From positions 32,001 through 96,000 of IMG/VR virus record IMGVR_UViG_3300027917_000021: 64,000 nt of DNA, one strand, 5' to 3'. The position numbers and the translations under genes are program-made. Under the pieces are notes generated by a model. The model searched no databases and was not told the DNA's origin. It saw only the letters and a program-made list of their open reading frames with translations. The stretch's first letter is position 1; the number at the start of each line of letters is the position of its first letter. Shown in pieces: positions 3,724 to 35,688 of this stretch. This stretch comes from a virus.

Positions 3724-3737
3724 ATTTATCTTATACC
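3724..3737 (-). promoter_or_regulatory. phage promoter motif GGNATAAGAnnnnT
   Basis: GGTATAAGATAAAT upstream of 3704. Confidence 0.7.
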
Positions 3738-3757
3738 ATAAAGAAAAAGGCCCATTT

Positions 3758-4126
3758 TCATGGACCTTCGAGTACTGCTGCGCGGTTGTACAGTTTTTGG
3801 ACAAGTTGTCGGCAGATATTTTCATAGGCATCCCTAAAGGGTATAACATTGTCCCATGATGCATTGAGAACCGTGAATAATTTCATGTATTTCCACCAGA
3901 TTGTCCACAAACCGCTAAATATATTGGATTGTGGATCTGTCCCAAATACATTGTCAGCTACCGAGTATGCTTCTCCAAATTGATGGCGTGAATATTGTGT
4001 GAAATCCTTTATTTGACGGTCAGGAATAAACTCGATATAATCATCTGTATGCAGATAAAATTCTATGAGTTCTTTTTTACCTTTTTCTATCAAATAATTG
4101 ATTGCCGTTATATCTTTCATAGACAT
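3758..4126 (-). CDS. hypothetical protein
   Basis: 122 aa ORF. Confidence 0.65.
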   Translation of the reverse strand: MSMKDITAINYLIEKGKKELIEFYLHTDDYIEFIPDRQIKDFTQYSRHQFGEAYSVADNVFGTDPQSNIFSGLWTIWWKYMKLFTVLNASWDNVIPFRDAYENICRQLVQKLYNRAAVLEGP

Positions 4127-4398
4127 CGCTCGGTTTCCTTTCTTAGTTGTTGAATGGTTTTACCTGTTCTTAAACTTGTTCTGACATACCATTTTTCATG
4201 TTCCTGATCTAATTTGTATTGAATATGATTTATCCAACGATTTGCAAGGAGAAATACTTTAGAAGGATCTTTGTATTTGTCAGAGAGTTTTCCAATTACA
4301 ACTAAATGGAGATAACGATACTTTAGATATATACAGATACCCCACACCCAAAAATAGAAATTCATTATGGATTTTATTAAAATTTTAAGTAATTGCAT
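4117..4398 (-). CDS. hypothetical protein, hydrophobic N-terminus
   Basis: AGGAGG RBS and GGNATAAGA motif upstream. Confidence 0.65.
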   Translation of the reverse strand: MQLLKILIKSIMNFYFWVWGICIYLKYRYLHLVVIGKLSDKYKDPSKVFLLANRWINHIQYKLDQEHEKWYVRTSLRTGKTIQQLRKETERCL

Positions 4399-4419
4399 AT
4401 TACCTCCTAAGTAATGTAT

Positions 4420-4433
4420 ATTGTTCTTATGCC
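4420..4433 (-). promoter_or_regulatory. phage promoter motif GGNATAAGAnnnnT
   Basis: GGCATAAGAACAAT upstream of 4398. Confidence 0.7.
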
Positions 4434-4651
4434 AAATTAATGACTTTTATTGGACGCTTTGAATATTTTAAATCTGTACGTTTCAATCTTCGTGTCATAA
4501 AGACGAGTTGTGGTGGTTTTGTTTCGTCACCTTTAAAGTCCTTAACAATACGATACCGTTTACTCATTTTAATATCATTGATGGAATAAACGCTGTGCCG
4601 TGGTGCATGATCAAGAAATTGCATTCTTATTATATTAACTTTCATTTGCAT
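4427..4651 (-). CDS. small basic protein
   Basis: AGGAG RBS and GGNATAAGA motif upstream. Confidence 0.6.
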   Translation of the reverse strand: MQMKVNIIRMQFLDHAPRHSVYSINDIKMSKRYRIVKDFKGDETKPPQLVFMTRRLKRTDLKYSKRPIKVINLA

Positions 4652-4674
4652 AAAATCTCCTATTTTGATATTAT

Positions 4675-4688
4675 ATTTGTCTTATCCC
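4675..4688 (-). promoter_or_regulatory. phage promoter motif GGNATAAGAnnnnT
   Basis: GGGATAAGACAAAT upstream of 4651. Confidence 0.7.
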
Positions 4689-4705
4689 AAATAATTTTGT
4701 ATATT
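4677..4705 (+). promoter_or_regulatory. sigma70-type promoter, leaderless GT2
   Basis: TTGTCT-N17-TATATT, ATG 6 nt downstream. Confidence 0.65.
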
Positions 4706-4711
4706 TGTGCT

Positions 4712-5386
4712 ATGAAAGCTACAGTAATTATAACCAGCTACAATAGACCACATTTATTACCACAGGCAGTTGATTCAGCACTAAATCAGAAATATGACAA
4801 TATACAAATAATCATAGCAGACGACGGATCCAATGAAGAGACTCGTAAGGTATGTGAGGATTATAATGCCAAGTATGACAATATAACATATTATCAATCA
4901 GATCGTAAAGATGAGGACAGATTAAAGAGTACAGAGTTTGCGGAAAATATAAATGCTTGTATACCATTGATAGAAGGAGAAATAGTATTTTATCTTACTG
5001 ATGATGATTATTATTATCCTAATCATGTATCAGAGATTATGTCTGCATTTAAAGAACATCCGGATTGGATGATGGCGTATGGTCCACAGAAACAGAATAA
5101 ATATGATGATGACACAGGCGAAGAATGGACTGCGTTCATACGTGCACCTGGTTATAAAGTTTCACAAGCATCATGTCAATTAGATCATAATCAAGTAGCA
5201 CATAGAAAATCAGTATTCGATATAGTTGGTGGTTGGCCAACCGAACCTGAGCATCGAGGAGCAGGAGATGCAGCGATGTGGGTAAAAATAAATGCTCACT
5301 GGCCAGCATATAGAGCAACTGATCAGATTACTAATGTGCACAGGCATCACAGGGATTCAATTCAAGGACCTGTAGTATGGCCGTAG
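4712..5386 (+). CDS. glycosyltransferase family 2
   Basis: MKATVIITSYNR...IIIADDGS...YLTDDD GT-A motifs; true start 4712 (leaderless), not 4508. Confidence 0.9.
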   Translation: MKATVIITSYNRPHLLPQAVDSALNQKYDNIQIIIADDGSNEETRKVCEDYNAKYDNITYYQSDRKDEDRLKSTEFAENINACIPLIEGEIVFYLTDDDYYYPNHVSEIMSAFKEHPDWMMAYGPQKQNKYDDDTGEEWTAFIRAPGYKVSQASCQLDHNQVAHRKSVFDIVGGWPTEPEHRGAGDAAMWVKINAHWPAYRATDQITNVHRHHRDSIQGPVVWP

Positions 5387-5387
5387 G

Positions 5388-5416
5388 TTGTATTAGTTTT
5401 AATAATTTATTATATT
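5388..5416 (+). promoter_or_regulatory. sigma70-type promoter, leaderless gmd
   Basis: TTGTAT-N17-TATATT, ATG 6 nt downstream. Confidence 0.65.
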
Positions 5417-5422
5417 TTATTT

Positions 5423-6421
5423 ATGAATGAACAGGTAAGAAAACAAAAGAAAGCACTGATAACAGGAATTAATGGCATGGATGGATCTCACATGGCAGAC
5501 CTATTGTTATCTAAAGGCTATAAAGTTTATGGTTTGGAGCGCCATAGAACAGGCGTTGATAGAGCTAATATAGCTCATATATTTGACCAAATAGAAATAG
5601 TAAAAGGAGATTTGTCTGATATAGGATCCATACACCGTGTGATGCATGTAGCTCAACCAGATGAAGTATATAATTTTGCAGCACAATCATTTGTTGGTGA
5701 TAGCTGGTCATTACCAGAGCATACAGGAAATATTACCGGACTTGGGGTATTGCGTGTATTGGAGGCTATGCGTAGTTATCCGGATACTAAAATGGTACAA
5801 GCATCTACTTCTGAAATGTTTGGTAAATTGAATGTAGATATAGCGAATGAGTCCTCTAGATTTTTTCCACAGAATCCTTATGGAGTAGCTAAATTATTTG
5901 CACACCATATAGTTGAAAATTATCGTGATTCATATGGTATGTTTGCCTGTGCATCTATTTCATTTAACCATGAATCAGAACGCAGAGGAATGCAGTTTGT
6001 TACTCGTAAAATTACACATCATGTGGCAAAGATACATCTTGGATGGTCCAAAGAAATAAGGCTTGGTAATTTGGAGCCTAGACGAGACTGGGGCTATGCA
6101 CCTGACTATGTTGAAGGCATATGGAAGATGCTGCAGCAAGATAAGCCTGATGATTATGTATTGGCAACTGGAATATCACATTCGGTAGAAGATTTTGTTC
6201 GCGAGGCTTTTGCAGTTGTAGGAATAAAAGATTGGCAGAAGTATATAGTGAAAGATCCACGCTTTATTCGTCCTGTGGAGGTAGATTATTTACGTGGTGA
6301 TTATTCTAAAGCAAAGGAGATTTTAGAATGGGAACCAAAAGTACATTTCAAAGAAATAATTAGAAGAATGGTTTTAAATGATATTAGACTATTAACCGGT
6401 GATAGAAATTATGAGTTATAA
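5423..6421 (+). CDS. gmd: GDP-mannose 4,6-dehydratase
   Basis: ALITGINGMDGS, YNFAAQSFV, ASTSEMFG, PYGVAK, FNHESERRG, FVTRKIT, LGNL..RRDWG. Confidence 0.95.
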   Translation: MNEQVRKQKKALITGINGMDGSHMADLLLSKGYKVYGLERHRTGVDRANIAHIFDQIEIVKGDLSDIGSIHRVMHVAQPDEVYNFAAQSFVGDSWSLPEHTGNITGLGVLRVLEAMRSYPDTKMVQASTSEMFGKLNVDIANESSRFFPQNPYGVAKLFAHHIVENYRDSYGMFACASISFNHESERRGMQFVTRKITHHVAKIHLGWSKEIRLGNLEPRRDWGYAPDYVEGIWKMLQQDKPDDYVLATGISHSVEDFVREAFAVVGIKDWQKYIVKDPRFIRPVEVDYLRGDYSKAKEILEWEPKVHFKEIIRRMVLNDIRLLTGDRNYEL

Positions 6422-8547: not shown

Positions 8548-9497
8548 ATAAAGTATTATTTGTAAACAGTAAAATTACAGCATGTGGTGTACATCAATAT
8601 GGTTATAATATTGCAAATACTATTTCAAAGCATTCCAAAAAGTTTGAATATATTTATGTGGAATGTGTTAATGAGCAGGAATTTGTACGTAAATTTAACG
8701 CTGATCAATACTTGGCTGTTATTTATAATTATCATCCTTCTACTATTGGATGGGCGAAGCAAAGACTAGAAACTCATGTATTTCCGCATGTTCCCCATAT
8801 AGCAATAGTGCATGAACCAGAACAACATGGTGCACCTTTTACTTATAAGGTGAGCCAGGATCCTAGTTTTGAGGAAAAACCTCCATACTTCAAACAGTAT
8901 AGCAGGAACATATTTACATATGAGAATACACACCCATCACCTGAAATACCAACTATTGGATCATTTGGTTTTGCGTGGACCGATAAAGGATATGAAAAAT
9001 TAGTTGAACAGGTTAAAAAAGAATTTGATGTAGCCAAAATAAGACTTCATCTTCCTAAATCTCATTTTGGAGATCCACACGGTGCTCTTGCTAATCAGAT
9101 GGTACAGAGATGTAGTATGTTATTACATGATACAAACATTGAATTAGAAATATCCAGAGAATGGATGGAGCTGTATGATTTAATAGATTGGTTGGCACAA
9201 AATACTATAAATGCTTTCTTTTATGATTATAAACAGGGCAGAGGCATTTCAGGACCACCTGACTTTGCTATGGCCGCACGTAGGCCAATGATACTAACTA
9301 AATCATACATGTTTAAACATTTGTGGAAAGCACGACCTTCTATATTCATAGAAGATGTATCTATAAAACAAGTAATTGAAACAGGAATGCAATCATTACA
9401 GCCGTTTTATGACAAATGGTCAGAAGAAAATTTGACCAAAGATTATGACAGAATAGTTAAGGCAGCCATAATAGATAGAGAAAGAAATGATAGATAA
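8544..9497 (+). CDS. putative glycosyltransferase (GT-B/GT4-like)
   Basis: CGVHQYG N-terminus, IVHE, IGSFGF..KGYE, GISG...AMAARRP. Confidence 0.6.
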   Translation: MNKVLFVNSKITACGVHQYGYNIANTISKHSKKFEYIYVECVNEQEFVRKFNADQYLAVIYNYHPSTIGWAKQRLETHVFPHVPHIAIVHEPEQHGAPFTYKVSQDPSFEEKPPYFKQYSRNIFTYENTHPSPEIPTIGSFGFAWTDKGYEKLVEQVKKEFDVAKIRLHLPKSHFGDPHGALANQMVQRCSMLLHDTNIELEISREWMELYDLIDWLAQNTINAFFYDYKQGRGISGPPDFAMAARRPMILTKSYMFKHLWKARPSIFIEDVSIKQVIETGMQSLQPFYDKWSEENLTKDYDRIVKAAIIDRERNDR

Positions 9498-10833
9498 ATA
9501 TTTAGATAAAAAATATAATCAGTATAAAAATAGATCATTAACTTTCGTTAATCCATCAATAGGATTTTGTCCCGGTCTTATGCCGTTAGGAATAGCATCA
9601 CTGTCTTCTTATCTGAAACAGCATGGATTTCATAATATTGATTTTTTAGACGCGAACTGTGAACATATTGAAAATAATTATGAGTATTCTGACATAGTTG
9701 GCATAACAGCAGTTACACAAAATATGGGAGCTGCTATCAGGTACGCACAATGGTTAAAGAGGAAACAACCCAATGTTGTAATTATTTTAGGTGGAGTCCA
9801 TATTACTACATCTAAACAACTGCCAGAGCCTTTTGATATTGGTGTGATAGGGGAAGGAGAAATAACATTATTAGAGCTTATGGTGACTCCTGAATTTATA
9901 CCAGAGCATTTAAAAAATGTATCAGGTATTTGTTATAGAGAGAATAGTGAACTGAAGTTTACCCCTCCTAGACCATTGGTTCCTCAATTGGACGAGTTTC
10001 CAATACCAGACCGTGAAATCATGAATGTAAATTACTATGTTTCTCCAAAGATGCTCATACCATATAATCACGGCAGGACATTATCGTTGCTTACTTCGCG
10101 TGGATGCCCCTTTTCATGTAGCTTTTGTAGTACAAAAGTGCATTGGAATAGATTTAGAGCACATTCTGCAGAACGTGTGGTAGAGGAAATGGAATTGGTA
10201 GTTAATAAATATAATGTAGAGATTCTCCATTTGTTTGATGATTTGTTTACTGCAAACAAGAAAAGATTATTTAAGATAAGAGATCTCATGGTTGAAAAAG
10301 GATTAAATAAACGTGTACGAATGATGTGTTTAGTTCGAAGTGATACTACAGATGATGAGATAATGCAAGCACTTAAAGAAATGAATATAGTAGTTATTGG
10401 AGCAGGCTTTGAAAGCATGTCAAAGAAAATGTTAAAATATATTAAAAAAGACACAACAACTGTAGAACAACACAAACGTCTAGCGGATCTGGCAATAAAA
10501 TATCAAATACCATTAATGGCCAGTTTCTTGATTGGGAATCCAGGAGAAACTATGGAAGATCTACAGGAAACGCTCGAGTTTATAAGATCATATCGACATA
10601 CTAGGATGTTTCAACCACTGTCATATGTTGCTGCAGTGTTTCCTGGAACTGAGTATTATGATATAGCCAAACAGCGTAATTTGCCAGTTGATGATTATGA
10701 ACGCATACTGATGGATATTGTACCAGATATTAATGCATTTAAAAATGCTCCATTGCTAACTGATTTGCCGTTAGAAGATTTTTACAAGATAGCACAAGAA
10801 TTCCAATATGAAACTGTGCTCAAAATAACATAA
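9487..10833 (+). CDS. cobalamin-dependent radical SAM enzyme (class B methyltransferase-like)
   Basis: PLGIASL...LGGVH...GEGE B12-binding domain; TSRGCPFSCSFC; GFES; IGNPGET. Confidence 0.92.
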   Translation: MIDKYLDKKYNQYKNRSLTFVNPSIGFCPGLMPLGIASLSSYLKQHGFHNIDFLDANCEHIENNYEYSDIVGITAVTQNMGAAIRYAQWLKRKQPNVVIILGGVHITTSKQLPEPFDIGVIGEGEITLLELMVTPEFIPEHLKNVSGICYRENSELKFTPPRPLVPQLDEFPIPDREIMNVNYYVSPKMLIPYNHGRTLSLLTSRGCPFSCSFCSTKVHWNRFRAHSAERVVEEMELVVNKYNVEILHLFDDLFTANKKRLFKIRDLMVEKGLNKRVRMMCLVRSDTTDDEIMQALKEMNIVVIGAGFESMSKKMLKYIKKDTTTVEQHKRLADLAIKYQIPLMASFLIGNPGETMEDLQETLEFIRSYRHTRMFQPLSYVAAVFPGTEYYDIAKQRNLPVDDYERILMDIVPDINAFKNAPLLTDLPLEDFYKIAQEFQYETVLKIT

Positions 10834-17393: not shown

Positions 17394-17505
17394 GATCTTT
17401 TAAAAAAATTGCATAGAATCTCATCTATGTGCAACCTATCTAGAGCTTCCTTATCTTTAGATAGTATCGTTCAGTCAAGGGGCTACGCATGTGGCCCCTT
17501 TTTTT
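17394..17505 (+). ncRNA. candidate ~110-nt sRNA
   Basis: Promoter, hairpins TTGCATAGA..TCTATGTGCAA and CTATCTAGAG..CTTTAGATAG, terminator GGGGCTAC-GCAT-GTGGCCCC-T7; no ORF. Confidence 0.55.
17479..17505 (+). terminator. intrinsic terminator
   Basis: GGGGCTACGCATGTGGCCCC followed by T run. Confidence 0.8.
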
Positions 17506-17510
17506 AAGCT

Positions 17511-17656
17511 AAAAAAAGAAAGGCTATGTATTGATCTTATACCATAGCCTATCTGTCCAGACATCCCGGGCCAGTTTCTAAGCGTGGCGTATGGGATTCG
17601 CACGATTGATAGAACTTTCATAGCTCCTATTTCAATATAGGCAGCTTTAAAGCTTT
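17511..17656 (-). ncRNA. candidate ~145-nt structured RNA
   Basis: GGNATAAGA motif at 17661-17674, 5' rod hairpin, ends in AGGCTATG..CATAGCCT + U-rich tract. Confidence 0.4.
17530..17543 (-). promoter_or_regulatory. phage promoter motif GGNATAAGAnnnnT (inside hairpin)
   Basis: GGTATAAGATCAAT. Confidence 0.5.
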
Positions 17657-17660: not shown

Positions 17661-17674
17661 AATATTCTTATACC
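17661..17674 (-). promoter_or_regulatory. phage promoter motif GGNATAAGAnnnnT
   Basis: GGTATAAGAATATT. Confidence 0.65.
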
Positions 17675-18448: not shown

Positions 18449-18700
18449 TTAATTAAGAATTACTTCGTCTTCTGCAGCCTCCAGACCATCGTCCATCATA
18501 TCATTGGCCTCATCAATCATACCGGTAATATCGCCTTCGGGATATAGAAAATCATCAGAATTAACTTCCTTTTTGCATGAAGGGCATTTGTAAATGATAG
18601 CATCATCATCCCGACGAACGAAATCATCAGAGCGATCAATTTCATTTTTGCAATGCGGACACATTGCGCGGATATATCCGCTATAACCTAAATTACCCAT
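18449..18700 (-). CDS. zinc-ribbon protein, acidic tail
   Basis: CPHC and CPSC; AGGAGG RBS. Confidence 0.7.
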   Translation of the reverse strand: MGNLGYSGYIRAMCPHCKNEIDRSDDFVRRDDDAIIYKCPSCKKEVNSDDFLYPEGDITGMIDEANDMMDDGLEAAEDEVILN

Positions 18701-18881
18701 GATACCTCCTTAGTTTTTTAGACAACAAACCAATTATAGTACTAAATACAAACATACTTATCAAAACAGTACCAACATCATTGAGCGTCAAGTTGGTAGT
18801 TACAAAAAATAAAGCAATACCCACAATAGCAAACAGAATTACAAACATTCCACCAATACTTTCTTTTCTTGAACTCATCAT
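18693..18881 (-). CDS. small 2-TM membrane protein
   Basis: Two hydrophobic stretches; AAGGAGAG RBS; GGNATAAGA motif upstream. Confidence 0.7.
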   Translation of the reverse strand: MMSSRKESIGGMFVILFAIVGIALFFVTTNLTLNDVGTVLISMFVFSTIIGLLSKKLRRYHG

Positions 18882-18908: not shown

Positions 18909-18922
18909 ATCATTCTTATTCC
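18909..18922 (-). promoter_or_regulatory. phage promoter motif GGNATAAGAnnnnT
   Basis: GGAATAAGAATGAT upstream of 18881. Confidence 0.7.
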
Positions 18923-19322: not shown

Positions 19323-19347
19323 AAAAAAGGGGGACGTACGTCCCCTA
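19323..19347 (-). terminator. intrinsic terminator with ACGTACGT core
   Basis: GGGGACGTACGTCCCC with A run on the left. Confidence 0.75.
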
Positions 19348-19353: not shown

Positions 19354-20226
19354 TTACTTATGCGGGAGCCCTGCAACACACCCATTGAGAACATAAGCAA
19401 GCTTTATTATCCGCATTGCGATGTTCTCGGAAACTTTAGTAGCTCCGTCGTAAAGGTATTGAGAAGAAATTCTCAATTTTGGAACTTTGTGTGAAAATCG
19501 AAAGAGCGCCCAAGGAGTGACAACTTCTCCACCGTTAGTACGCTGGTGATGAAATATGTGCTGCAGTACCGGGGATACATCATAATAGGTTCTTTCATTT
19601 TCGTATTGCCCGCCTCTTCCGGTTTTGATTTTGTAATATTTGGCATTTAAAATAACCAAATTTTCCAGTTCTTTCACACGGACGTGACCGGCTTCACCGA
19701 AAGGAGCAAAAGATAATTTCTTTCGCATAATTTCTTCATAGCGTCCTCCCTCTGTGCCTGCCGGCTGGCATTCTTCTTCAATTATCTCTGCTTCCTGTAC
19801 TTCCGGTGCTTCCTGTTCATGTTCCAGCATTTCAACTCTTCTGATGACATTTCTCCAAATTTTAAAAACCCGGCCATACCAATCATCCTGAGAAATAATT
19901 CCTCGGGCAAGTTGCTGCTCAAGATTATGTACTTCTGCCTGCGCCGATCCAATTTCCATTTTCATTTCGCGGGAATATTTTCTTGGAGGCTGTGCTTCAT
20001 AACCAGTTCCGGAAAATATTTGATGTAGGATCATAACATCCTCTGCAGTCAATATTTTTGCTGCTTGCGGAGCCGCAGCATCGTCAAAACCTTTAATAAA
20101 AGCTTCGACGATATTTCCGTGGAGATGCTTGTGGTAATGTGCGTAGAAATGCATCATGAGCCCGGCCTTAAATCCAAAAGTTTCATGTAGTTCATTCATT
20201 GAATCACGCAATTTTTGTAAGTCCAT
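19354..20226 (-). CDS. hypothetical protein
   Basis: 290 aa; AGGAGAG RBS; GGNATAAGA motif upstream. Confidence 0.75.
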   Translation of the reverse strand: MDLQKLRDSMNELHETFGFKAGLMMHFYAHYHKHLHGNIVEAFIKGFDDAAAPQAAKILTAEDVMILHQIFSGTGYEAQPPRKYSREMKMEIGSAQAEVHNLEQQLARGIISQDDWYGRVFKIWRNVIRRVEMLEHEQEAPEVQEAEIIEEECQPAGTEGGRYEEIMRKKLSFAPFGEAGHVRVKELENLVILNAKYYKIKTGRGGQYENERTYYDVSPVLQHIFHHQRTNGGEVVTPWALFRFSHKVPKLRISSQYLYDGATKVSENIAMRIIKLAYVLNGCVAGLPHK

Positions 20227-20256: not shown

Positions 20257-20270
20257 AACTCTCTTATGCC
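20257..20270 (-). promoter_or_regulatory. phage promoter motif GGNATAAGAnnnnT
   Basis: GGCATAAGAGAGTT upstream of 20226. Confidence 0.7.
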
Positions 20271-20332: not shown

Positions 20333-21952
20333 TTATGGTTCGGGAACCCAAGTTCCTTCATTTTCGTAGTATTCCCAGTTACCACCATAATCTTGAGCGC
20401 CAATAAAGATTTCCAAACCATCGCGTTGCTGGAATTCATACCATGCACCACTATTCATATAGAACTGTTTATTATAATAAGTGGTAGAGGATGAATTTCC
20501 CTGTCCATTTTCATAATAGATACTGGCAAGAGTAATTTCTTCATCGTCTTCATAATAGAATAAACCATATCTGTAGCAGTACAATTCGGAATACGATACC
20601 CAATAGCAATGGATTTTTCGATACGAATCGTAATGCGGTGCCGGAGTTGTAAATCCGCCAAAATCCGCAGGCAACGAAATGTCTGATCCACCATAATAAA
20701 ATCGTAGATCATCCAAATATGCACTGTTTGGTGTTTGTCCGATTTGCTGGACACAGAAACGAACATACTTAGGATCATCATATAATATGCTAATGTCAAC
20801 TGTGTTAAGTTTGAATGATGTTGCTCCATTGGATTCCAATTGAGCACCGTAGGAAATAATAAAGTCGTCGTTTTCATCAAACAGTGCTAGATGTAGCATT
20901 AATGTCACGCCGGTCAATGTTCCAGCACACTGAATTGTTGCCGTATAGTCGCCTTCAATACAGGAGTCAGGCAACAGAAAATAGCCACTTGAAGTAACAC
21001 GATTAGAATTACGGGCAAATTTTAGTTGCATAGAATAGGTGCCTAATGTTTTATAACTTGAATTTGCCAATTCGTTCTGTGTAGTGTAATAATTGGAGGT
21101 TGGTGGATCAAAAAAGTCAGGTAAATTCCAACCACCGTCTGGTGAAATATTCCAAGCATAAGGAACACCGGAATTCCAGGTTTCAAAACTTGGATTCAGA
21201 TCGGGATAGTAAAATGCACCAGGAACATCCATTAATTTGTCTTTATTAGTATTTGGTTTGCTCAATCCATAAACCAATAAATTGTTTCCATATCCGGGTG
21301 CTGTGTGGCCGGTATTGTCTTCATCCATACCAGAATCATAAAGAGATGATATTGTCGAATTTGTTGCATACGTTACCAGGAATGCTCGGCATTCGACATA
21401 GTCTGCGCCGTAGTCATCAAAATAATAAGTATTAGCATCCCAAGCATAAGGCGATGGAGAATAATACCATACCATATTTCCCCATACGGAGTTAGCCATG
21501 TCAAAATCTTCATAATCACTAGAACTGTACGAAGTAACATTCCAGAAATAAGTAGCATTCGACACTGCCTGTATGCCAGTAACACTTCTTGGTTTGCCTA
21601 AAGCATCAGAGAACTGAGCAATTCGCAGGGCTTCCAACCCTTCTTTTGTATGTGTTCGATAAAATTCTTTCCGCTCAGATTCTTTGGCTTCTTCTTTTGC
21701 GAGAGTTTCAGCATCCCATTTCGACCGATGTATTCCGCTAATAAACTGACGCTTATAGTCGAGTGGATTCTCTGGATACTTGAAATTCTTAAAATAATCT
21801 TCCAAATCTCCAATTTCAACTTTCGACAATTTCTGTCCTGGAAATGAAAAATCAGTACTCTGTGCTTCAACACTCACTGGAGGCTCTTGTTCGCACTGAA
21901 TAAACACAAAGGGCAACAGAAAAATAACCAGAAATGCAAAAAAGATTTTCAT
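20333..21952 (-). CDS. putative lipoprotein with carbohydrate-binding-like domain
   Basis: Signal peptide MKIFFAFLVIFLLPFVFIQ-C; LNPSFETW...W and YLDDLRF typical of CBM4/9-like jelly rolls. Confidence 0.65.
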   Translation of the reverse strand: MKIFFAFLVIFLLPFVFIQCEQEPPVSVEAQSTDFSFPGQKLSKVEIGDLEDYFKNFKYPENPLDYKRQFISGIHRSKWDAETLAKEEAKESERKEFYRTHTKEGLEALRIAQFSDALGKPRSVTGIQAVSNATYFWNVTSYSSSDYEDFDMANSVWGNMVWYYSPSPYAWDANTYYFDDYGADYVECRAFLVTYATNSTISSLYDSGMDEDNTGHTAPGYGNNLLVYGLSKPNTNKDKLMDVPGAFYYPDLNPSFETWNSGVPYAWNISPDGGWNLPDFFDPPTSNYYTTQNELANSSYKTLGTYSMQLKFARNSNRVTSSGYFLLPDSCIEGDYTATIQCAGTLTGVTLMLHLALFDENDDFIISYGAQLESNGATSFKLNTVDISILYDDPKYVRFCVQQIGQTPNSAYLDDLRFYYGGSDISLPADFGGFTTPAPHYDSYRKIHCYWVSYSELYCYRYGLFYYEDDEEITLASIYYENGQGNSSSTTYYNKQFYMNSGAWYEFQQRDGLEIFIGAQDYGGNWEYYENEGTWVPEP

Positions 21953-21981: not shown

Positions 21982-21995
21982 ATATTTCTTATGCC
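21982..21995 (-). promoter_or_regulatory. phage promoter motif GGNATAAGAnnnnT
   Basis: GGCATAAGAAATAT upstream of 21952. Confidence 0.7.
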
Positions 21996-22890: not shown

Positions 22891-24288
22891 TTATTTCTTT
22901 TGAATACCGATTATGTCGTACACCACATAGGTTTCCATTGGTTGTGGATCCCCTCCGTAGTAATCTCTCAGGCGCTTGAATTCCTCCAATTCCGGAGTTT
23001 TCACTCCATAATTAATTTTTACCGGCCGGCCTTTTGGATAGCGTTGCATTGTAAAGCCTTTTGGAAAATCCTCCGGATAAACATAGATTTTGTGCTTTGA
23101 ATTGTCATCAGAAGTGAAAACAAATTGATGGCTTCCGGCTGGTACTAACATACCGCTTTCGGTAAATTCGGCAATAAAATCGATTGGCGGACAATGGTTG
23201 CTTATGGTCTCCGTCGCCAGCGACCATATTACCACGAGGAAATCACCGAACTTTTTTAGTATCCAGCAAATGCCACTAGCAACCCATTGTAGACCTTCAA
23301 ATATCCAGAGAATTATATGGGCAATCCATTTCAAAGGTTGTCCGGGAAATATAACCAAAACTTTCCAGATGCCACTAAAAAGGTTCCATACGTATACATC
23401 CAGTGGGCTTTCTTTTTCCTTTTTTCTTCCTTTTTTGGCCAGAAATTCCAGACGCAGCCGTTCAAGTTCACGCTTCGCGGCCGCCTTTTCAGCTTCTCGC
23501 ATCTTTTTCTGTTTTTGGCGCTCGAAAAGAACATCTTTAAATTTTTCCCGTCTTTTTTCCTGCCAATCGCGTACTTTGCATGATTGTGTAATTGTCCAGC
23601 GGGTCAAACGACAGCGGAAAAACCAGACGCCGATTTTATATAGAATGATCATAACCAAACCAAAAGCCACGATACATCCAAGTCCCAGGCCAATCGCAAA
23701 TAGAATGCTTAACCATGGCAAATCGATAAAGGCCCATATCAAATCACCTAAAGTGAATATTAGCCAACCGATGCCGTACAATACCAAAGGAATACCATCC
23801 AGTACGAGCCATACCAGGCCTGCCCATACCCCGGTTAATATCCACCATGGAATCGAATAGATCCAGAAAATGCCAAATCCGATCCAGGCCAGAAGATTTG
23901 AATAGAGAAACAAAGATACAATTCCAGAAACAACCATAAGAATTCCTGCGAAAACCCATGATGCCATTAATTTACTCTTCTCTATGAGGTCAAAGATGTC
24001 ATCAATAGCCTCCGGCCAAATCCAGGATAATGGTTTCAATACTAATATTTCCACCAGTTTTAATACCAGGAATGGTATTAAAGTGACCAATAATAGCAAA
24101 CTGCCCCAGAACATGAACTGGTAGAAAGGACACTTGTTGGTGGCTTCTTTTTTATTGAAACCATACCACATGCGGAGCCACTGATAATACCGATATCGGG
24201 CATCACTGGTACCCATTATGATATTATCTTCATGGCCCAGATATCGATCAGCAAACTCCGCACCAACGCGAGCTGCTTTATTTCTCAT
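22891..24288 (-). CDS. polytopic Trp-rich membrane protein
   Basis: Several TM segments, charged coiled coil, Trp-rich amphipathic repeats; GGAGG RBS before ATG at 24288. Confidence 0.75.
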   Translation of the reverse strand: MRNKAARVGAEFADRYLGHEDNIIMGTSDARYRYYQWLRMWYGFNKKEATNKCPFYQFMFWGSLLLLVTLIPFLVLKLVEILVLKPLSWIWPEAIDDIFDLIEKSKLMASWVFAGILMVVSGIVSLFLYSNLLAWIGFGIFWIYSIPWWILTGVWAGLVWLVLDGIPLVLYGIGWLIFTLGDLIWAFIDLPWLSILFAIGLGLGCIVAFGLVMIILYKIGVWFFRCRLTRWTITQSCKVRDWQEKRREKFKDVLFERQKQKKMREAEKAAAKRELERLRLEFLAKKGRKKEKESPLDVYVWNLFSGIWKVLVIFPGQPLKWIAHIILWIFEGLQWVASGICWILKKFGDFLVVIWSLATETISNHCPPIDFIAEFTESGMLVPAGSHQFVFTSDDNSKHKIYVYPEDFPKGFTMQRYPKGRPVKINYGVKTPELEEFKRLRDYYGGDPQPMETYVVYDIIGIQKK

Positions 24289-24517
24289 CAGTATCCTCCT
24301 CCTGCATGTCTTCAATTTGTTCTTTCAAAGCGGAATTCTGCTCTCTTAATTCCGAGATCTTTGTTTCCAGGCTGTCATTTGCCGCTTCCACCGCTTTGAC
24401 ATGTTCCGGCTCGTTAAGAAGATAAGAATCGTTAATTGCGTTATGTGCCCAGTACGCCAGAAGAAAAATCAGCACAAATGCTGCCAATACAAAAAAAGAA
24501 CGTGTTCTGTCGTTCAT
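24278..24517 (-). CDS. single-TM coiled-coil protein
   Basis: N-terminal TM then heptad region; AGGAG RBS. Confidence 0.7.
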   Translation of the reverse strand: MNDRTRSFFVLAAFVLIFLLAYWAHNAINDSYLLNEPEHVKAVEAANDSLETKISELREQNSALKEQIEDMQEEDTDEK

Positions 24518-24575: not shown

Positions 24576-24589
24576 TAATTTCTTATGCC
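24576..24589 (-). promoter_or_regulatory. phage promoter motif GGNATAAGA
   Basis: GGCATAAGAAATTA upstream of 24517. Confidence 0.65.
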
Positions 24590-24725: not shown

Positions 24726-24974
24726 TTAATCCGGATAAAAGTCCTGTGCCGATCCCGGCCCGCCAACTTTACGTGTATCAAAATAATAGCCAATTAATCG
24801 AGGGTGAGTATCTTTGTAATATTCCCATTTTATGTCATGCAGTGTCTGGGTCTTATTAAGATGTCGCTTCAAATGATCATTACAGCAAAATGGACCACCC
24901 ACGTAGTTTATGGTTTTCTGTGTAATAAATTTTCCACAAAATAAACAATATTGAGCATCAGGAATAGTTGTCAT
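24726..24974 (-). CDS. TRASH-like zinc-finger protein
   Basis: CLFCGK...FCCNDH; AAGGAGAG RBS. Confidence 0.6.
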   Translation of the reverse strand: MTTIPDAQYCLFCGKFITQKTINYVGGPFCCNDHLKRHLNKTQTLHDIKWEYYKDTHPRLIGYYFDTRKVGGPGSAQDFYPD

Positions 24975-25001: not shown

Positions 25002-25015
25002 ACTATTCTTATACC
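25002..25015 (-). promoter_or_regulatory. phage promoter motif GGNATAAGAnnnnT
   Basis: GGTATAAGAATAGT upstream of 24974. Confidence 0.7.
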
Positions 25016-25451: not shown

Positions 25452-25780
25452 ATAAAAAAATAGAGGGCTACGTACGTAACCCCCTATAGTTATGGCCCAC
25501 TTCGGGGCGCGCCCTACCGGTTCAGGCAACCATTCAGCTACACATATGTGAACGTCAGTTACACATATGTGAATGCAACGGGCGGGTAGTTTATTTGGCC
25601 TGATTTAAAGTTGCCATGTCAGGTGCCGTTAATAATCTTTGAGGGTTGTAGATTGGATGAACTACCGAATTTTGGCATTCACCTGGCGCGGGGCGGGCTT
25701 TAAGGTGGGAACCGGAGCCCGTCGTGACATGGCATCCACAGGTGCAGTTGGTCGCACGTCCACTGGATAACTGAGCTTCA
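25452..25780 (-). ncRNA. candidate structured ncRNA (~320 nt)
   Basis: GC-enriched island; long-range IR TGCCATGTCA/TGACATGGCA; direct repeat TACACATATGTGAA; ends in terminator at 25454-25487. Confidence 0.4.
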
Positions 25781-26304: not shown

Positions 26305-26318
26305 ATAATTCTTATGCC
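26305..26318 (-). promoter_or_regulatory. phage promoter motif GGNATAAGAnnnnT
   Basis: GGCATAAGAATTAT upstream of candidate ncRNA. Confidence 0.65.
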
Positions 26319-26449
26319 GGTTTTTTAACATCTTTTTGAGGCTTTCGCCCACCAGCGACAATCCTTTTAATGGGCTTGTCACAATTACCGAGTCCACGCC
26401 CGGCACGCGGCCCTTTACCTTCAGGACCTGTTCCATCTTTTCGTGGCAT
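26312..26449 (-). CDS. DUF5320-family small protein (45 aa)
   Basis: Hand translation MPRKDGTGPEGKGPRAGRGLGNC... matches the DUF5320 N-terminal signature; AGGAGG RBS; GGNATAAGA motif upstream. Confidence 0.8.
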   Translation of the reverse strand: MPRKDGTGPEGKGPRAGRGLGNCDKPIKRIVAGGRKPQKDVKKPA

Positions 26450-26472: not shown

Positions 26473-26486
26473 ACTATTCTTATGCC
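26473..26486 (-). promoter_or_regulatory. phage promoter motif GGNATAAGAnnnnT
   Basis: GGCATAAGAATAGT upstream of 26449. Confidence 0.7.
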
Positions 26487-26489: not shown

Positions 26490-27473
26490 TTAGAATTCAT
26501 ACATGGTAGCAAGTACAACCACATCAGCGTAAAATCCCAACTGATTAATTATTGAACGTGCGGTACATGCAAACTTTGATATTGAATCATCCATCAAAAC
26601 AACCAGTGCCTTCTTTCCGGTTTGTTCGTAATGTTGTTTACATTTTAATATTAATTCATCTGGAACCTTGTGGATATAGAGAAGATCTAATCCCGGCACC
26701 CTTCTTATTTTTCCAAATTTATGGGCATACGCACCATAATGAGTTTCATCTTCATCGTGCCACTGCTTTTTGTATTCCTTTATATAGTATCTTAACCATT
26801 CTGCTGCAGTGTCCTTGTATTCAAAAGTAGTGATGAGGTCTTCCGTTACAATGCATAAATGTTTCCAGTAGTTAACGGAATGTCTTTTTGTGGTATGATA
26901 AATGTGATCACCAGACACAGAAAAAGAATTTTCCAGATATTTGGCGCATTCCTTATTGAAATCTCCACTTAGACAATCAGCAAACAGAAAAAAGTTTGCA
27001 TTTTCACTGAAATATTTTAACAGGGCACGATTAAATTCCATGTACAATTGTATAGATGCCGGATCCGTATCAATTTTAAAACCATTAACACCTACAGGAA
27101 ATAATCGGCTGATTATATCCTTTTCTAGTGCTGTTAGACATTTCTTGTCAATGTTATACTTATAATAATAAAAACTCGCAAATGGAGATAACACTAGACC
27201 AGTATATCCCAGAGTGGATTCAATGCTGCGAAAATAATAGGTGCATTTTTTTCCGTAGTGTTTTTTTAATTTTAAAAAATGATTTTCCGCCAAATGCATT
27301 TGGCTTACTGTTGTCTTTAATTCGTCAGAATATAAATTAGAGCCTTCGCTTTGAATTCCGGTTTGTAGGTCACGATTAGCCCACATTAGGGCATCTTGCA
27401 TTAACTCCTTTGTTAGTAATAAGTATGGCAAATGCCATTTTTTGAAGTTTTCCAACTGCTCGCTAAGTTGCAT
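26490..27473 (-). CDS. hypothetical protein, possible PRTase-like C-terminus
   Basis: 327 aa; C-terminal KKALVVLMDDSIS..CT resembles a PRPP-binding loop. Confidence 0.6.
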   Translation of the reverse strand: MQLSEQLENFKKWHLPYLLLTKELMQDALMWANRDLQTGIQSEGSNLYSDELKTTVSQMHLAENHFLKLKKHYGKKCTYYFRSIESTLGYTGLVLSPFASFYYYKYNIDKKCLTALEKDIISRLFPVGVNGFKIDTDPASIQLYMEFNRALLKYFSENANFFLFADCLSGDFNKECAKYLENSFSVSGDHIYHTTKRHSVNYWKHLCIVTEDLITTFEYKDTAAEWLRYYIKEYKKQWHDEDETHYGAYAHKFGKIRRVPGLDLLYIHKVPDELILKCKQHYEQTGKKALVVLMDDSISKFACTARSIINQLGFYADVVVLATMYEF

Positions 27474-27508: not shown

Positions 27509-27522
27509 ACTTTTCTTATCCC
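27509..27522 (-). promoter_or_regulatory. phage promoter motif GGNATAAGAnnnnT
   Basis: GGGATAAGAAAAGT upstream of 27473. Confidence 0.7.
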
Positions 27523-30618: not shown

Positions 30619-30822
30619 TTATAGTCCTCTTAAAAACTTTTTCATTGAAGTGGGAAGGGAATATATAGGAATTCCTGATTCTTCCTTTCCTGTATCCATT
30701 GTATAACCATGTCCCCTGCCAAGAGTTCTAAAAAATTTTAAACATTCATCACTGCCACAACAGTATTGCCACGATTTTTTTGATTTACCACATCTGCATA
30801 TACGAGCAGAATATTTTTTCAT
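30619..30822 (-). CDS. small Cys-rich protein
   Basis: CRCG...CC...C; AAGGAG RBS; GGNATAAGA motif upstream. Confidence 0.6.
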   Translation of the reverse strand: MKKYSARICRCGKSKKSWQYCCGSDECLKFFRTLGRGHGYTMDTGKEESGIPIYSLPTSMKKFLRGL

Positions 30823-30845: not shown

Positions 30846-30859
30846 AATATTCTTATGCC
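30846..30859 (-). promoter_or_regulatory. phage promoter motif GGNATAAGAnnnnT
   Basis: GGCATAAGAATATT upstream of 30822. Confidence 0.7.
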
Positions 30860-30867
30860 TCAAAAAT

Positions 30868-30896: not shown

Positions 30897-30923
30897 TGTT
30901 TTAGTAATTAACCAGGAAAAACT

Positions 30924-31650: not shown

Positions 31651-31683
31651 CCTTTTCTTGCCGCCTTTTCTTTAAATTAACCC

Positions 31684-31712
31684 TTGACATTTTAATTTTC
31701 AATATCTATATT
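31684..31712 (+). promoter_or_regulatory. sigma70-type promoter of HNH/MKYFEK operon
   Basis: TTGACA-N17-TATATT. Confidence 0.75.
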
Positions 31713-31745
31713 TTCTTATACTGTATTAATTTTTAAGGATAAAAA

Positions 31746-32688: not shown

Positions 32689-32808
32689 TAAAATATTTTA
32701 TAAAAAACACATCCTAAAAGATTTGTTAAAGGAATCTTGGGACTAGGCACTGGTTTAGCCATCGCAGGATATGGGCTCAGTGGAGGAAGTATTAAAAATA
32801 AAAATAAG
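32688..32808 (+). pseudogene. decayed MKYFEK-family gene
   Basis: ATA AAA TAT TTT ATA AAA (IKYFIK) then frameshifted ...GILGLGTGLAIAGYGLSGGSIKNKK*. Confidence 0.5.
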
Positions 32809-32822
32809 GAAAAATTATAAAA

Positions 32823-33239
32823 ATGAAATATTTTGAGAAATTAGCCAAAGAAGACCCGGGATATTTTGGAAAACAAATGGCTGCAACACGAGCATCGAGA
32901 ATTCATGATTCTGCGGCCGGGACATTAGTTGCAGATCCGAAATTGATTAAGAAAAGATTTGAAAAAGCAATTACATATGGTGTTCCAGCAGCTATAGGAG
33001 GTGCCGGAGTAGGAGCTTTAGTAGGAAAAATGAAGGGATATACAGGTTTCGGAGCAGCAGCTGGTGCTATATTAGCAGGTTATGGCGGTGAAGTAGCCGG
33101 CATACTGAAAGCAGACAAAGAATATTTAGCTAAAAAAGGAATTGAATTATCAGCATTTGGAAACGTCAAGAAAATGACTCCAGAGGCAAAAAAGAAATAT
33201 TTACACGAGAAATACCGCGGCGGCGGTTATAAAGGATAG
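32823..33239 (+). CDS. MKYFEKLA-tagged glycine-zipper protein (putative internal virion/ejection protein)
   Basis: Tag plus GVPAAIGGAGVGALVG and GFGAAAGAILAG. Confidence 0.8.
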   Translation: MKYFEKLAKEDPGYFGKQMAATRASRIHDSAAGTLVADPKLIKKRFEKAITYGVPAAIGGAGVGALVGKMKGYTGFGAAAGAILAGYGGEVAGILKADKEYLAKKGIELSAFGNVKKMTPEAKKKYLHEKYRGGGYKG

Positions 33240-33249
33240 GAAAATAAAA

Positions 33250-33660
33250 ATGAAGTATTTTGAAAAAATAGCTATATCAAAAGAAGAAGAACAAACTTAC
33301 AAAAGAGCCCCATATAGGCTAGTGCCTTATGTAGGGCCATATTTAGGGACTCCAAAAGGTATGAGAAAAGAACATCCTTGGGTTTCGGCTCTATGGGGAC
33401 CCCCGGGGTCATTTGGTGCAAAATCAAAAGATACTGGAAAATCTTATTTAGAAGAAGCAGTTAAAACTGAAGCAGCAGTTCAAACTGGTATTGGTGCCGT
33501 AGCAGGCACTGTAGCAGGCGCTATGGCAGGAGCTAGAGGAAAACAATTAGCCAAAGTTATTGCTGCAGCTACAGGAATTGGTGCGGCCAGTGGGGCGGCC
33601 GGCGGTGCAATTGCTTACGGCGGTGGAAAATTATTTGCTGGGCAAAAGAAAAAAAAATAA
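33250..33660 (+). CDS. MKYFEKIA-tagged glycine-zipper protein
   Basis: Tag plus long GxxxG/A-rich helices, basic C-terminus. Confidence 0.8.
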   Translation: MKYFEKIAISKEEEQTYKRAPYRLVPYVGPYLGTPKGMRKEHPWVSALWGPPGSFGAKSKDTGKSYLEEAVKTEAAVQTGIGAVAGTVAGAMAGARGKQLAKVIAAATGIGAASGAAGGAIAYGGGKLFAGQKKKK

Positions 33661-33699
33661 TGAAATATAATGAAATATAATGAAATATAATGAAATATT
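33660..33699 (+). repeat. 10-bp tandem repeat (ATGAAATATA)x3 + ATGAAATATT
   Basis: Reiterated start of the MKY tag upstream of 33690. Confidence 0.9.
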
Positions 33700-34394
33700 T
33701 TGAAAAAAATGCTGCATCTGGTTCCATAGGTCTTTGGCCAGTTCCTAAAAATCTTGCAGGGGCGGCAATAGGAGCTACTATTTTTGGCCTTTCTGGATAT
33801 TCAGATGCAGATAAGGATAATAAATGGACATCTACAGCCAGTTCTGCATTATTAGGAGGAGTATTAGGCGCCGGAGCACAAGGTGCAGCAAGAGCAATGA
33901 AAAAATCTTTTAAGACGTCATTAAAAATGACAAAAAACATGTCAAAAAAAGACAATCCATTGGGCCAATATTTGTCAGAAGGCGTTGATCCTGCTGTAGA
34001 AAAAAGCAAGCGAGTGATGGACAAATTAAAACGTCAGGAAGACAAAATTAGGTCTCATAAAGCTAGCAAAAGTGGTTTTATGTATGAAGATGCAGTAAAA
34101 TATGTTAGGGAAAAGAAGGCTGCTACATTTAGAGTTTCTGAAAAAGATTTAACAAACAAAGAACTTCAACATGAGTTGAGAAGACCATATTTTGAAGGAT
34201 CTTTGCAGAATATGGCTTTTGGTGGAACATTTGGTGCAACCGCTTCTTTGCTTAATAAAGGAAAATCATACGGAAAAAATCTTCTAACTGGTGTTGCGGC
34301 TGGACTCATAGCAACTCCTATAGTTAATGCGTTAGATAAAAAAGACATATTAAAAGAAGTAGATCGCAGAAAGAAACACAAAGGTTATAGATAG
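33690..34394 (+). CDS. MKYFEKNA-tagged protein with two glycine-zipper modules
   Basis: Tag; internal KYVREKKA separates two Gly/Ala-rich hydrophobic modules. Confidence 0.8.
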   Translation: MKYFEKNAASGSIGLWPVPKNLAGAAIGATIFGLSGYSDADKDNKWTSTASSALLGGVLGAGAQGAARAMKKSFKTSLKMTKNMSKKDNPLGQYLSEGVDPAVEKSKRVMDKLKRQEDKIRSHKASKSGFMYEDAVKYVREKKAATFRVSEKDLTNKELQHELRRPYFEGSLQNMAFGGTFGATASLLNKGKSYGKNLLTGVAAGLIATPIVNALDKKDILKEVDRRKKHKGYR

Positions 34395-34666
34395 TGAAAT
34401 ACTTTGAAAAAATATCAGAGTATAAAGAGTGGGATGATAGACACGCATTCACAGAAAATATACCGGGAGGTGCTGCTATCGGAGCTTTCGTTGGTCCAAT
34501 AGCTGCTAAATTACAAGCACAATTAATAAATCGTAAATTAAAAGCTATAGAAGAAATTAAACCATTTAAACCCGCCTTAATTAGAGCGAGCATTATTGGT
34601 GGTTTATTAGGGTCCATTGTTGGAGCTGGTAAATATGTCTATGAAAAAGAATACTACACAAAATAA
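34394..34666 (+). CDS. MKYFEKIS-tagged glycine-zipper protein (GTG start)
   Basis: Tag plus GGAAIGAFVG and GGLLGSIVGAG. Confidence 0.75.
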   Translation: MKYFEKISEYKEWDDRHAFTENIPGGAAIGAFVGPIAAKLQAQLINRKLKAIEEIKPFKPALIRASIIGGLLGSIVGAGKYVYEKEYYTK

Positions 34667-35075
34667 ACCTAAATATTACCACTATGGTTATCGTTATATT
34701 AAACCACAGGATGAGCCTGAAGACTGGGATTATGCCATTCAGATGCATAAAAATCAAAATGGCACCCACTTTGATTTTAGATTAGCGAAGCCAGGACATG
34801 ATTATGCTTATTCCTGGGCATCACGCAAGCCACCTCTTAATATTACATCTCCTATTTTAACCCGCCGAACACATGATCATACTATAGAGCATATGGATTT
34901 TGAAGGTCCTCTTGAAACAGCAAGAGGCACGGGCACTGTGCAATTGCTTAAAAGGGGCAAAACTAAATTGCATTCTATAGATGATAAAGGTATTAAGTTT
35001 AAACTTGATACTGGTGAATTTTTACTTTTAACAAATGTTAAAGGTAAAAAATATATTCTAACAACTCCAACCTAA
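34635..35075 (+). CDS. stand-alone LigD-type 3'-phosphoesterase domain protein
   Basis: IQMH...HFDFRL...SWA.RK...THDH...FEG...GTG.V matches the LigD PE motif set. Confidence 0.8.
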   Translation: MSMKKNTTQNKPKYYHYGYRYIKPQDEPEDWDYAIQMHKNQNGTHFDFRLAKPGHDYAYSWASRKPPLNITSPILTRRTHDHTIEHMDFEGPLETARGTGTVQLLKRGKTKLHSIDDKGIKFKLDTGEFLLLTNVKGKKYILTTPT

Positions 35076-35105
35076 AAAAGAAAGGCCACATATGTGACCT
35101 TTCTC
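35074..35105. terminator. bidirectional terminator with ACATATGT core
   Basis: AAAGGCCACATATGTGACCTTT between convergent genes. Confidence 0.7.
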
Positions 35106-35114
35106 TAGACAATC

Positions 35115-35642
35115 CTACTTCTCGGTATCGTCTTTTGGCTCGAGTTTTTCAAGCTTCGATTTGGCGGCCTTAAGCTCTTTTTCAAGCTTGGTTTTTTCCG
35201 CCGAGGCAGTTTTCAATTCACCGGATGTCTTTTTCAGTTCTTCATCTCTCTGCTCAAGAGTATTTTGGAAAGCACGGTTTTTTTCGATTTCCTGCTCGTA
35301 CTTTACCTGTATTTCCTTCTTGTCATTTTCGGAAATTTCCAGCAATTTAACGGACTCTGTGAAATCATCTTCCAATTTGGCATGTTTTTCACTTACATCC
35401 TGATAAAGAGCTTTATAATCCTTGTCATCTTTCGACTTGGATTTTTTCCAAAAAGCCAGCTTGGAAACCTTTCCAAGAACTGATTTTCCGGTAGACTTCA
35501 TACCGTTTGAAAACTTCTCAGCAGCCTGTTTCGGAACAGCCTTGACATCACTAATTGTGACGTTGGCAGTCTTTCGTCCAACGAAAGCACCACCAATAGC
35601 TGTTGCAATGCTTGAGCCAACAATGACTAATACGCGGTTCAT
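35115..35642 (-). CDS. N-anchored coiled-coil protein
   Basis: Hydrophobic N-terminus, long Lys/Glu coiled coil; AGGAGG RBS; GGNATAAGA motif upstream. Confidence 0.75.
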   Translation of the reverse strand: MNRVLVIVGSSIATAIGGAFVGRKTANVTISDVKAVPKQAAEKFSNGMKSTGKSVLGKVSKLAFWKKSKSKDDKDYKALYQDVSEKHAKLEDDFTESVKLLEISENDKKEIQVKYEQEIEKNRAFQNTLEQRDEELKKTSGELKTASAEKTKLEKELKAAKSKLEKLEPKDDTEK

Positions 35643-35674
35643 AATTACCTCCTAAAAGTTAGATTGTTTAATTC

Positions 35675-35688
35675 ATTTCTCTTATTCC
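35675..35688 (-). promoter_or_regulatory. phage promoter motif GGNATAAGAnnnnT
   Basis: GGAATAAGAGAAAT upstream of 35642. Confidence 0.7.

Follow-up and report, generated by a model that had tools for sequence, protein, structure and literature searches.

The 64,000-nt window analysed here comprises bases 32001-96000 of a 155,895-bp contig (G000; 35.5% GC) of an uncultured phage and carries many copies of a short motif with the core GGnATAAGA. We use the name class B for the phage-specific promoter class with this core (word forms GGTATAAG and GGCATAAG). The motif is very likely a promoter, as its position, its orientation, its place just after terminators and its deep conservation all fit this function, and it is best read as a promoter class that depends on a phage sigma factor and would serve early and middle genes. 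To the explanation as a whole, in which GGnATAAGA promoters are recognized by Sigma 2, a divergent sigma factor encoded by the phage, and probably served by an RNA polymerase of the phage's own, we assign a probability of about 0.6.

Fourteen exact matches to GGNATAAGANNNNT were found in the window, all on the minus strand, whereas shuffled versions of the window contained 0.79 on average and three at most, and none of 100 shuffles reached 14. They stand at the coordinates listed in the original prediction, which had been made from the letters of the window and counted 15 minus-strand copies; the fifteenth (24576-24589) keeps the 9-nt core and ends in A, so that the terminal T is indeed present in 14 of 15. 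The count over the whole contig, proposed earlier as a check, gave 28 copies of the core GGNATAAGA, all of them on the minus strand; the plus strand, where no copy had been noticed before, has none, and scans allowing one mismatch yielded no convincing plus-strand copy. Twenty-one of the 28 core copies are fully intergenic, in a contig of which 11.5% is intergenic by our own gene calls (binomial p ~1e-14). Eleven additional GGnATAAG[C/G/T] copies in G000 lie mostly within genes, which indicates that the final A belongs to the motif in this genome.

The division of the window copies into 12 that precede a ribosome-binding site with ATG and three that precede non-coding DNA was correct. The Shine-Dalgarno (SD) sequence and ATG of a minus-strand open reading frame (ORF) follow the 12 copies at 24-63 nt, and the three others are those at 17530, 17661 and 26305. 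Terminator hairpins stand directly upstream of several copies, as at 24626-24606, after which the motif begins at 24589. Copies occur also beside tRNA genes, and outside the window one core copy lies about 25 nt upstream of a transfer-messenger RNA (tmRNA) gene. The shared downstream leader noticed before was recovered as AT(C/T)TAA in nine of the 28 sites, 17-33 nt from the motif start. PHROG and Pfam scans gave no usable function for the genes behind the motif, and Rfam detected no RNA family in the window.

Alignment of the 28 sites extends the word to aaWnT-GGnATAAGA-AnAn-T-R, with T directly 5′ of GG in 20 sites, T at motif position 13 in 20 sites and a purine at position 14 in 27 sites. 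As had been claimed, there is no -35 element: between -40 and -10 relative to the motif the information content of the 28 sites does not exceed 0.25 bit per position. Aligned to the extended -10 element TGnTATAAT, the word matches at T-15, G-14, T-12, A-11, T-10, A-9 and A-8, of which A-11, T-10, A-9 and A-8 are invariant; the exception is position -7, which is G and never T. For primary sigma factors, conservation is strongest at two bases, and T at -7 is among them. The TG at -15/-14 stands one base before the hexamer, with G-14 invariant, T-15 present in 20 of 28 sites and TGG as the consensus in Salmonella phage Arash (OQ632216), a cultured relative. The variable base of the core is nearly always T in the relatives, giving GGTATAAG, or TGGTATAAG in Arash. 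The G at -7 is specific, since the motif strand of Arash carries 36 copies of GGNATAAG versus four of GGNATAAT, and the same comparison of G with T gave 13 versus one in G032 (62% GC).

The Arash gene gp119c is preceded by GGTATAAG-tacctt-GGAGG-tactt-ATG. Because its SD sequence begins 6 nt after the 8-mer, at motif position 14, transcription should start no further downstream than this position. We infer that the T/purine pair corresponds to -1/+1, with transcription beginning 6 nt past the final A, at the purine, and the 'terminal T' of the original prediction would then be the -1 base in front of that purine. GGnATAAGA appears in this light to be an extended -10-type promoter devoid of a -35 element and having G for T at -7.

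Relatives were collected with a profile of Sigma 2 homologs, which retrieved 80 IMG/VR loci, mostly from phages of 130-215 kb; among GenBank phages, megablast with two pieces of the window as queries had no hits. G001 (TerL 84% identical) has 13 copies of the motif on one strand and none on the other, all 13 with the T/purine pair at positions 13-14, and in G002 (Sigma 2 77% identical) the 9-mer is distributed 20:1 between the strands. Similar bias was observed for G004 (39:1), G006 (25:0), G009 (2:28), G015 (2:27), G022 (27:2), G023 (0:20), G036 (10:0), G046 (14:1) and G048 (22:4), and the 8-mer adds G029 (16:4), G031 (9:19), G043 (0:12) and others. Arash (TerL 30% and Sigma 2 33% identical) shows 12:2 for the 9-mer and 36:7 for GGNATAAG, the 36 being on the non-virion strand, and 12 of its 13 sites checked lie 12-53 nt before an annotated minus-strand coding sequence or tRNA. 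Fourteen genomes with strong bias were checked for orientation, and in each of them the strand that carries the motif is opposite to that of the Sigma 2 gene. An unbiased scan of 8-mers ranked GGTATAAG first in G046 (54% GC) and in Arash (53% GC), and second in G032, just behind the overlapping TATAAGAT. An identical word is thus found in relatives of 35-62% GC, a Salmonella phage among them, and its retention over so wide a range of composition and hosts favours a reader encoded by the phage.

As readers of the motif the original prediction had named a phage sigma factor or RNA polymerase, or a host-encoded alternative sigma factor, and it had advised a search of the rest of the genome for the corresponding genes. 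The search succeeded for sigma factors, two proteins of the sigma-70 family being encoded on the contig, and failed for an RNA polymerase on this contig, the evidence for which comes from the lineage. Sigma 1 (genome 111434-112216, minus strand, which is the class B strand; 260 aa) contains regions 1.2, 2 and 4, matches SigA with an E-value of 1e-52 and keeps the -35-reading TRERIRQ helix. Sigma 2 (genome 142481-143200, plus strand; 239 aa) is the divergent one of the pair. Pfam recognizes its region 3, its residues 5-160 align with SigA regions 1.2-3 (E 6e-6), and the melting motif YATWWIRQ is replaced by THVTNH-KHLQRYV; no FliA-family match was present among the NCBIfam hits. The AlphaFold model of Sigma 2 (predicted local-distance difference test score, pLDDT, 80) matches the whole chains of sigma-S, SigA and SigB (E 1e-8).

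A second promoter type, here called class A, consists of near-perfect TTGACA-N17-TATATT sites at the head of the plus-strand blocks that encode terminase, head and tail genes and a glycan cluster. Class A sites often stand back-to-back with a class B copy, e.g. 35710 and 35688, and further copies start at 31684, 41502, 44895 and 48878. The Sigma 2 gene has its own TTGATA-N17-TATATT (genome 142440-142483; L004:6640-6683) 8 nt before the ATG and no SD sequence, and its mRNA is therefore expected to be leaderless or nearly so. A TTGACT-N17-TAAATT sequence (genome 112787-112815; L002:16787-16815; minus strand) was also noted inside the minus-strand operon, some 600 nt upstream of the gene for Sigma 1, which could thereby have a promoter of host type or one that it activates itself.

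TTGAC-N17/18-TATATT occurs in all 12 genomes with a close Sigma 1 ortholog and in one of 26 without; it is absent from Arash and Vibrio phage D181, and the TTGACA-N17-TATATT class as such is absent from Arash. In Arash the only match to Sigma 1 is weak and covers part of the protein (35% across residues 29-169; E 2e-18; opposite strand). Class B is enriched in genomes that lack Sigma 1 or class A (G036, G046, G048 and Arash). This co-occurrence, the presence of class B without Sigma 1, and the primary-sigma-like DNA-reading residues of Sigma 1 link Sigma 1 to class A, which leaves Sigma 2, the sigma factor present throughout the lineage, for class B. We consider it probable that Sigma 2 reads the class B motif.

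The lineage also appears to bring its own RNA polymerase. An RNA polymerase beta domain was detected in 20 of 20 Sigma 2-bearing relatives at least 90% complete, usually within an ORF of about 2000 aa. In G002 a 2015-aa ORF represents a full beta-beta' fusion (Pfam E 1e-66), with TTGATT-N17-TATATT upstream. This gene lies inside a 44.7-kb stretch of G002 (58919-103651) located between sequences that match the two ends of our contig, and for this reason we regard the contig as incomplete, with about 45 kb missing. Judged from these relatives, the phage very probably has a gene for a single-chain beta-beta' RNA polymerase, located in the missing part. The same stretch of G002 (L095-L098) also carries a 2559-aa ORF, and the contig had been rated 94% complete. 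A T7-like polymerase (PF00940) was not found on the incomplete contig, and the control genomes gave none either. In Arash the polymerase is split, in contrast to the single chain of G002: according to Pfam, gp206 consists of beta joined to the N-terminal portion of beta', the C-terminal portion of which is gp216. As a side observation, a 451-aa ORF of the window (39238-40593, plus strand) shares 29% identity (E 5e-57) with the helicase gp217 of Arash, the gene of which directly follows that for the C-terminal beta' polymerase protein. In the virion proteome of Arash both polymerase proteins (gp206 and gp216) and the sigma factor gp10 were detected, the polymerase as the top-count protein and gp10 with 100% coverage (PMC10585845).

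Other readers of the motif, and other functions for it, have to be weighed against this interpretation. Host RNA polymerase with its primary sigma could use the word as an ordinary extended -10 element (TGnTATAAt-like), class B being then a host-dependent early class. The matches at G-14, A-11, T-10, A-9, A-8 and often T-15 speak for it, as do the standard sigma-70 of the Gammaproteobacteria that are hosts of the cultured relatives and the early appearance of the downstream genes, ORFans without a Pfam or PHROG match. We nevertheless think it unlikely, since -7 is invariably G, the variant with TATAAT shows no enrichment (four against 36 in Arash, one against 13 in G032) and the same word recurs in genomes of 35-62% GC with different hosts. 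This last point also counts against an alternative sigma factor of the host, the part of the original prediction that is disfavoured, and we know of no host alternative-sigma consensus that the class B word matches. Within the phage, Sigma 1 might read GGnATAAGA and Sigma 2 do something else. Sigma 1 is a complete sigma of group 1/2 type with regions 1.2, 2 and 4 and is present in all genomes in which the 9-mer is most abundant; the enrichment of class B in G036, G046, G048 and Arash without a close Sigma 1 ortholog, the retained -35-reading residues of a primary sigma, the co-occurrence of Sigma 1 with TTGACA-N17-TATATT instead, and the location of its own gene on the class B strand make this assignment improbable.

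Two further alternatives deny that the word itself is a -10 element. It might be the binding site of a phage activator centred near -24, in the manner of the T4 MotA box, with the real -10 in a downstream TG-TATAAY, a proposal prompted by the TGTATAA(C/T) that follows 4 nt after the motif in G001 and in several window copies. Transcription would then start about 27 nt from the motif start, which in seven G000 copies (24-29 nt to the ATG) is inside or beyond the SD sequence, and in Arash gp119c, where the SD sequence stands at motif position 14, such a start would remove the ribosome-binding site altogether and is impossible; in addition, the usual spacer base between TG and hexamer is missing. 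On this geometry the activator-box reading was dropped as highly improbable. Slightest of all is the chance that the word acts in RNA, as a processing or stability signal 5′ of cistrons and not in initiation. Its strict co-orientation with genes, its proximity to tRNAs and tmRNA and the conserved AT(C/T)TAA leader would suit such a role, but many copies stand immediately behind an intrinsic terminator or at a divergent junction, positions that no transcript from upstream is expected to reach, and the word aligns base for base with a -10 element followed by a T/purine start.

Several observations weigh against the explanation built on Sigma 2 and a phage polymerase. Elimination and shared conservation are the grounds for assigning Sigma 2, the compared genomes were all retrieved through Sigma 2, and about a quarter of the Sigma 2-bearing genomes lack clear enrichment of the word. 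Sigma 2 possesses a region 4-like helix-turn-helix, yet the promoters ascribed to it have no -35 element. The co-occurrence of class A and Sigma 1 is confined to one subclade and may represent a single evolutionary event or be confounded by base composition. The polymerase was not found on this contig in searches for Pfam beta/beta' domains and for Arash gp206/gp216. The Arash 'virion' list comprises 116 proteins, obvious metabolic enzymes among them, and its authors allow for contamination by abundant proteins of the infected cell (PMC10585845). In every member of the lineage the start site, the sigma that reads the motif, the polymerase used and the timing are all deduced.

In the mechanism that we propose, class B would be restricted to the phage factor by its invariant G at -7, a position at which primary sigmas require T, and Sigma 2 would probably act on class B together with the single-chain beta-beta' RNA polymerase of the lineage. 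This holoenzyme may enter the cell with the DNA and fire class B promoters first, an entry made conceivable by the detection of both proteins in Arash virion preparations; that a virion-delivered phage polymerase uses the class B motif is a tentative proposal, to which we give somewhat less than even odds. Class B would drive the minus-strand set, i.e. the small ORFan genes, tmRNA, the replication block and Sigma 1, and Sigma 1 would then turn on class A and with it the genes for virion proteins, polymerase and Sigma 2. The cascade fits Arash in that 12 of the 13 sites checked precede an annotated minus-strand coding sequence or tRNA. In its full form, with a packaged and injected sigma-70-family factor and single-chain polymerase starting at TATAAG promoters closed to the host sigma, and the RpoD-like Sigma 1 later switching the enzyme to TTGACA-N17-TATATT late promoters, the scheme is possible, although we judge it somewhat less likely than not.

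The individual sites of the window are listed below.

Table 1. Motif copies and the class A promoter next to the last of them, with assignments as predicted from sequence context (window coordinates)
Predicted feature	Sequence	Position	Strand	Context
Class B promoter	GGTATAAGAtaaaT	3724..3737	-	After terminator-like hairpin; SD and ATG of ORF 3408-3704 24 nt past core
Class B promoter	GGCATAAGAacaaT	4420..4433	-	26 nt to ATG of ORF 4117-4398 (93 aa)
Class B promoter	GGGATAAGAcaaaT	4675..4688	-	28 nt to ATG of ORF 4427-4651 (74 aa); back-to-back with plus-strand glycan gene block
Core copy, probably chance match	GGCATAAGA	9576..9584	-	Within plus-strand ORF 9487-10833; no T/R at positions 13-14, no minus-strand gene downstream
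Motif copy, function uncertain	GGTATAAGAtcaaT	17530..17543	-	Non-coding DNA; in hairpin loop, T-run after
Class B promoter	GGTATAAGAatatT	17661..17674	-	Heads short non-coding stretch (candidate small RNA) to hairpin near 17530
Class B promoter	GGAATAAGAatgaT	18909..18922	-	32 nt to ATG of ORF 18693-18881 (62 aa); CATCTAA leader
Class B promoter	GGCATAAGAgagtT	20257..20270	-	35 nt to ATG of ORF 19354-20226 (290 aa); terminator-like hairpin before it; CATCTAA leader
Class B promoter	GGCATAAGAaataT	21982..21995	-	34 nt to ATG of ORF 20333-21952 (539 aa)
Class B promoter	GGCATAAGAaattA (last base A)	24576..24589	-	63 nt to ATG of ORF 24278-24517; directly after terminator 24626-24606
Class B promoter	GGTATAAGAatagT	25002..25015	-	32 nt to ATG of ORF 24726-24974 (82 aa); ATCTAA leader
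Motif copy	GGCATAAGAattaT	26305..26318	-	End of 45-aa ORF; then ~300 nt without convincing ORF (candidate RNA)
Class B promoter	GGCATAAGAatagT	26473..26486	-	28 nt to ATG of 45-aa ORF 26312-26449 (starts MPRKDGTGP)
Class B promoter	GGGATAAGAaaagT	27509..27522	-	40 nt to ATG of ORF 26490-27473 (327 aa); divergent from plus-strand gene 27564
Class B promoter	GGCATAAGAatatT	30846..30859	-	28 nt to ATG of ORF 30619-30822 (67 aa); orthologous copy in relative G001
Class B promoter	GGAATAAGAgaaaT	35675..35688	-	37 nt to ATG of ORF 35115-35642 (175 aa); back-to-back, 21 bp apart, with class A promoter 35710-35738
Class A promoter	TTGACA-N17-TATATT	35710..35738	+	Heads terminase and virion gene block

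Some neighbouring features were recorded alongside these sites. The copy at 17530 stands at the end of the short predicted transcript started by the copy at 17661 (window 17477-17543), and this transcript converges on a plus-strand terminator at 17477-17500. The 45-aa ORF on the minus strand (26312-26449) starts MPRKDGTGPEGKGP, and a motif copy in G004 is likewise followed by a similar ORF with MPRGDGTGP. The palindrome ACGTACGT, which genome-wide is among the top over-represented 8-mers, occurs six times in the window against 0.16 expected (24-31, 401-408, 2620-2627, 19334-19341, 25470-25477 and 41515-41522); terminator hairpins such as GGGGACGTACGTCCCC have it at their apex in at least two cases (19334-19341 and 25470-25477), and one copy falls within the class A promoter at 41502, in its spacer. 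The tmRNA gene (Rfam 57 bits; genome 19543-20101, L006:3543-4101, minus strand), with the class B promoter about 25 nt upstream, is abutted or overlapped in its 3′ part by a group I intron match (94 bits).

Compared with known systems, class B resembles extended -10 promoters (TGnTATAAT) in the absence of a -35 element, in G-14, often T-15, A-11, T-10, A-9 and A-8, in a purine 7 nt after the hexamer, and in a candidate reader, Sigma 2, that has sigma regions 2 and 3. It differs in having G for the near-invariant T at -7 and fixed G-13 and A-6, and its reader would be a divergent phage sigma with an altered melting motif. With the T4 late promoters (TATAAATA; gp55, gp33 and the sliding clamp) it shares phage specificity, a -10-only architecture, a TATAA core and, presumably, a sigma-like reader from the phage. 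Unlike them, its word is TATAAG with a GG prefix and heads ORFans, tmRNA and the replication block, the virion genes carrying TTGACA-N17-TATATT; Sigma 2 is a three-domain protein and not limited to region 2, and the lineage brings its own polymerase. The sigma-28 (FliA) element TAAA-N15-GCCGATAA is similar in the G/C-G-n-ATAA of its -10 word and in a reader of about 240 aa without region 1.1, but the 28 sites have no TAAA -35 box and their -10 word differs from GCCGATAA. A MotA-type box, near -30 with the start about 30 nt downstream, is at odds with the spacing in seven G000 copies and in Arash gp119c.

The virion polymerases of phiKZ-like phages and AR9 offer another parallel, with a multisubunit-type enzyme detected in virions, or in our lineage in the Arash virion preparations, encoded among late genes and apparently responsible for a host-independent early start (PMC7598289, PMC7824862). 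These enzymes consist of four or five very divergent subunits, and Iyer et al. reported no sigma factor in the group 1 phages to which they belong; reviews likewise describe the jumbo phages known to encode polymerases as lacking a sigma factor (PMC7824862; PMC13282480). The lineage described here differs from phiKZ and AR9 in combining one bacterial-like beta-beta' chain with sigma-type promoters and with proteins that truly belong to the sigma-70 family. Full-text searching with the word and variants of it returned unrelated primers only, the literature on jumbo-phage polymerases and sigma contained no description that we could find of promoters or transcription in this lineage, and the words 'promoter' and 'motif' are absent from the Arash paper (PMC10585845).

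If the proposed scheme is true, a complete and portable two-sigma bacterial transcription system is carried by a virus. Phages of a broad and almost unstudied lineage, 160-215 kb in size, bring together a one-chain, bacterial-like polymerase with true sigma factors and with a promoter word that is simple, conserved and different from the bacterial -10 element mainly at one critical base. To our knowledge, the known multisubunit phage polymerases, such as those of phiKZ and AR9, are highly divergent and work without a sequence-recognizable sigma, and the known phage sigma factors redirect the host enzyme. The cultured Salmonella member Arash opens this reading to bench tests. Once confirmed, it would provide a defined orthogonal sigma/promoter pair, a natural experiment on the -7 pocket and promoter specificity, and a key with which the transcription units of many metagenomic phages could be annotated.

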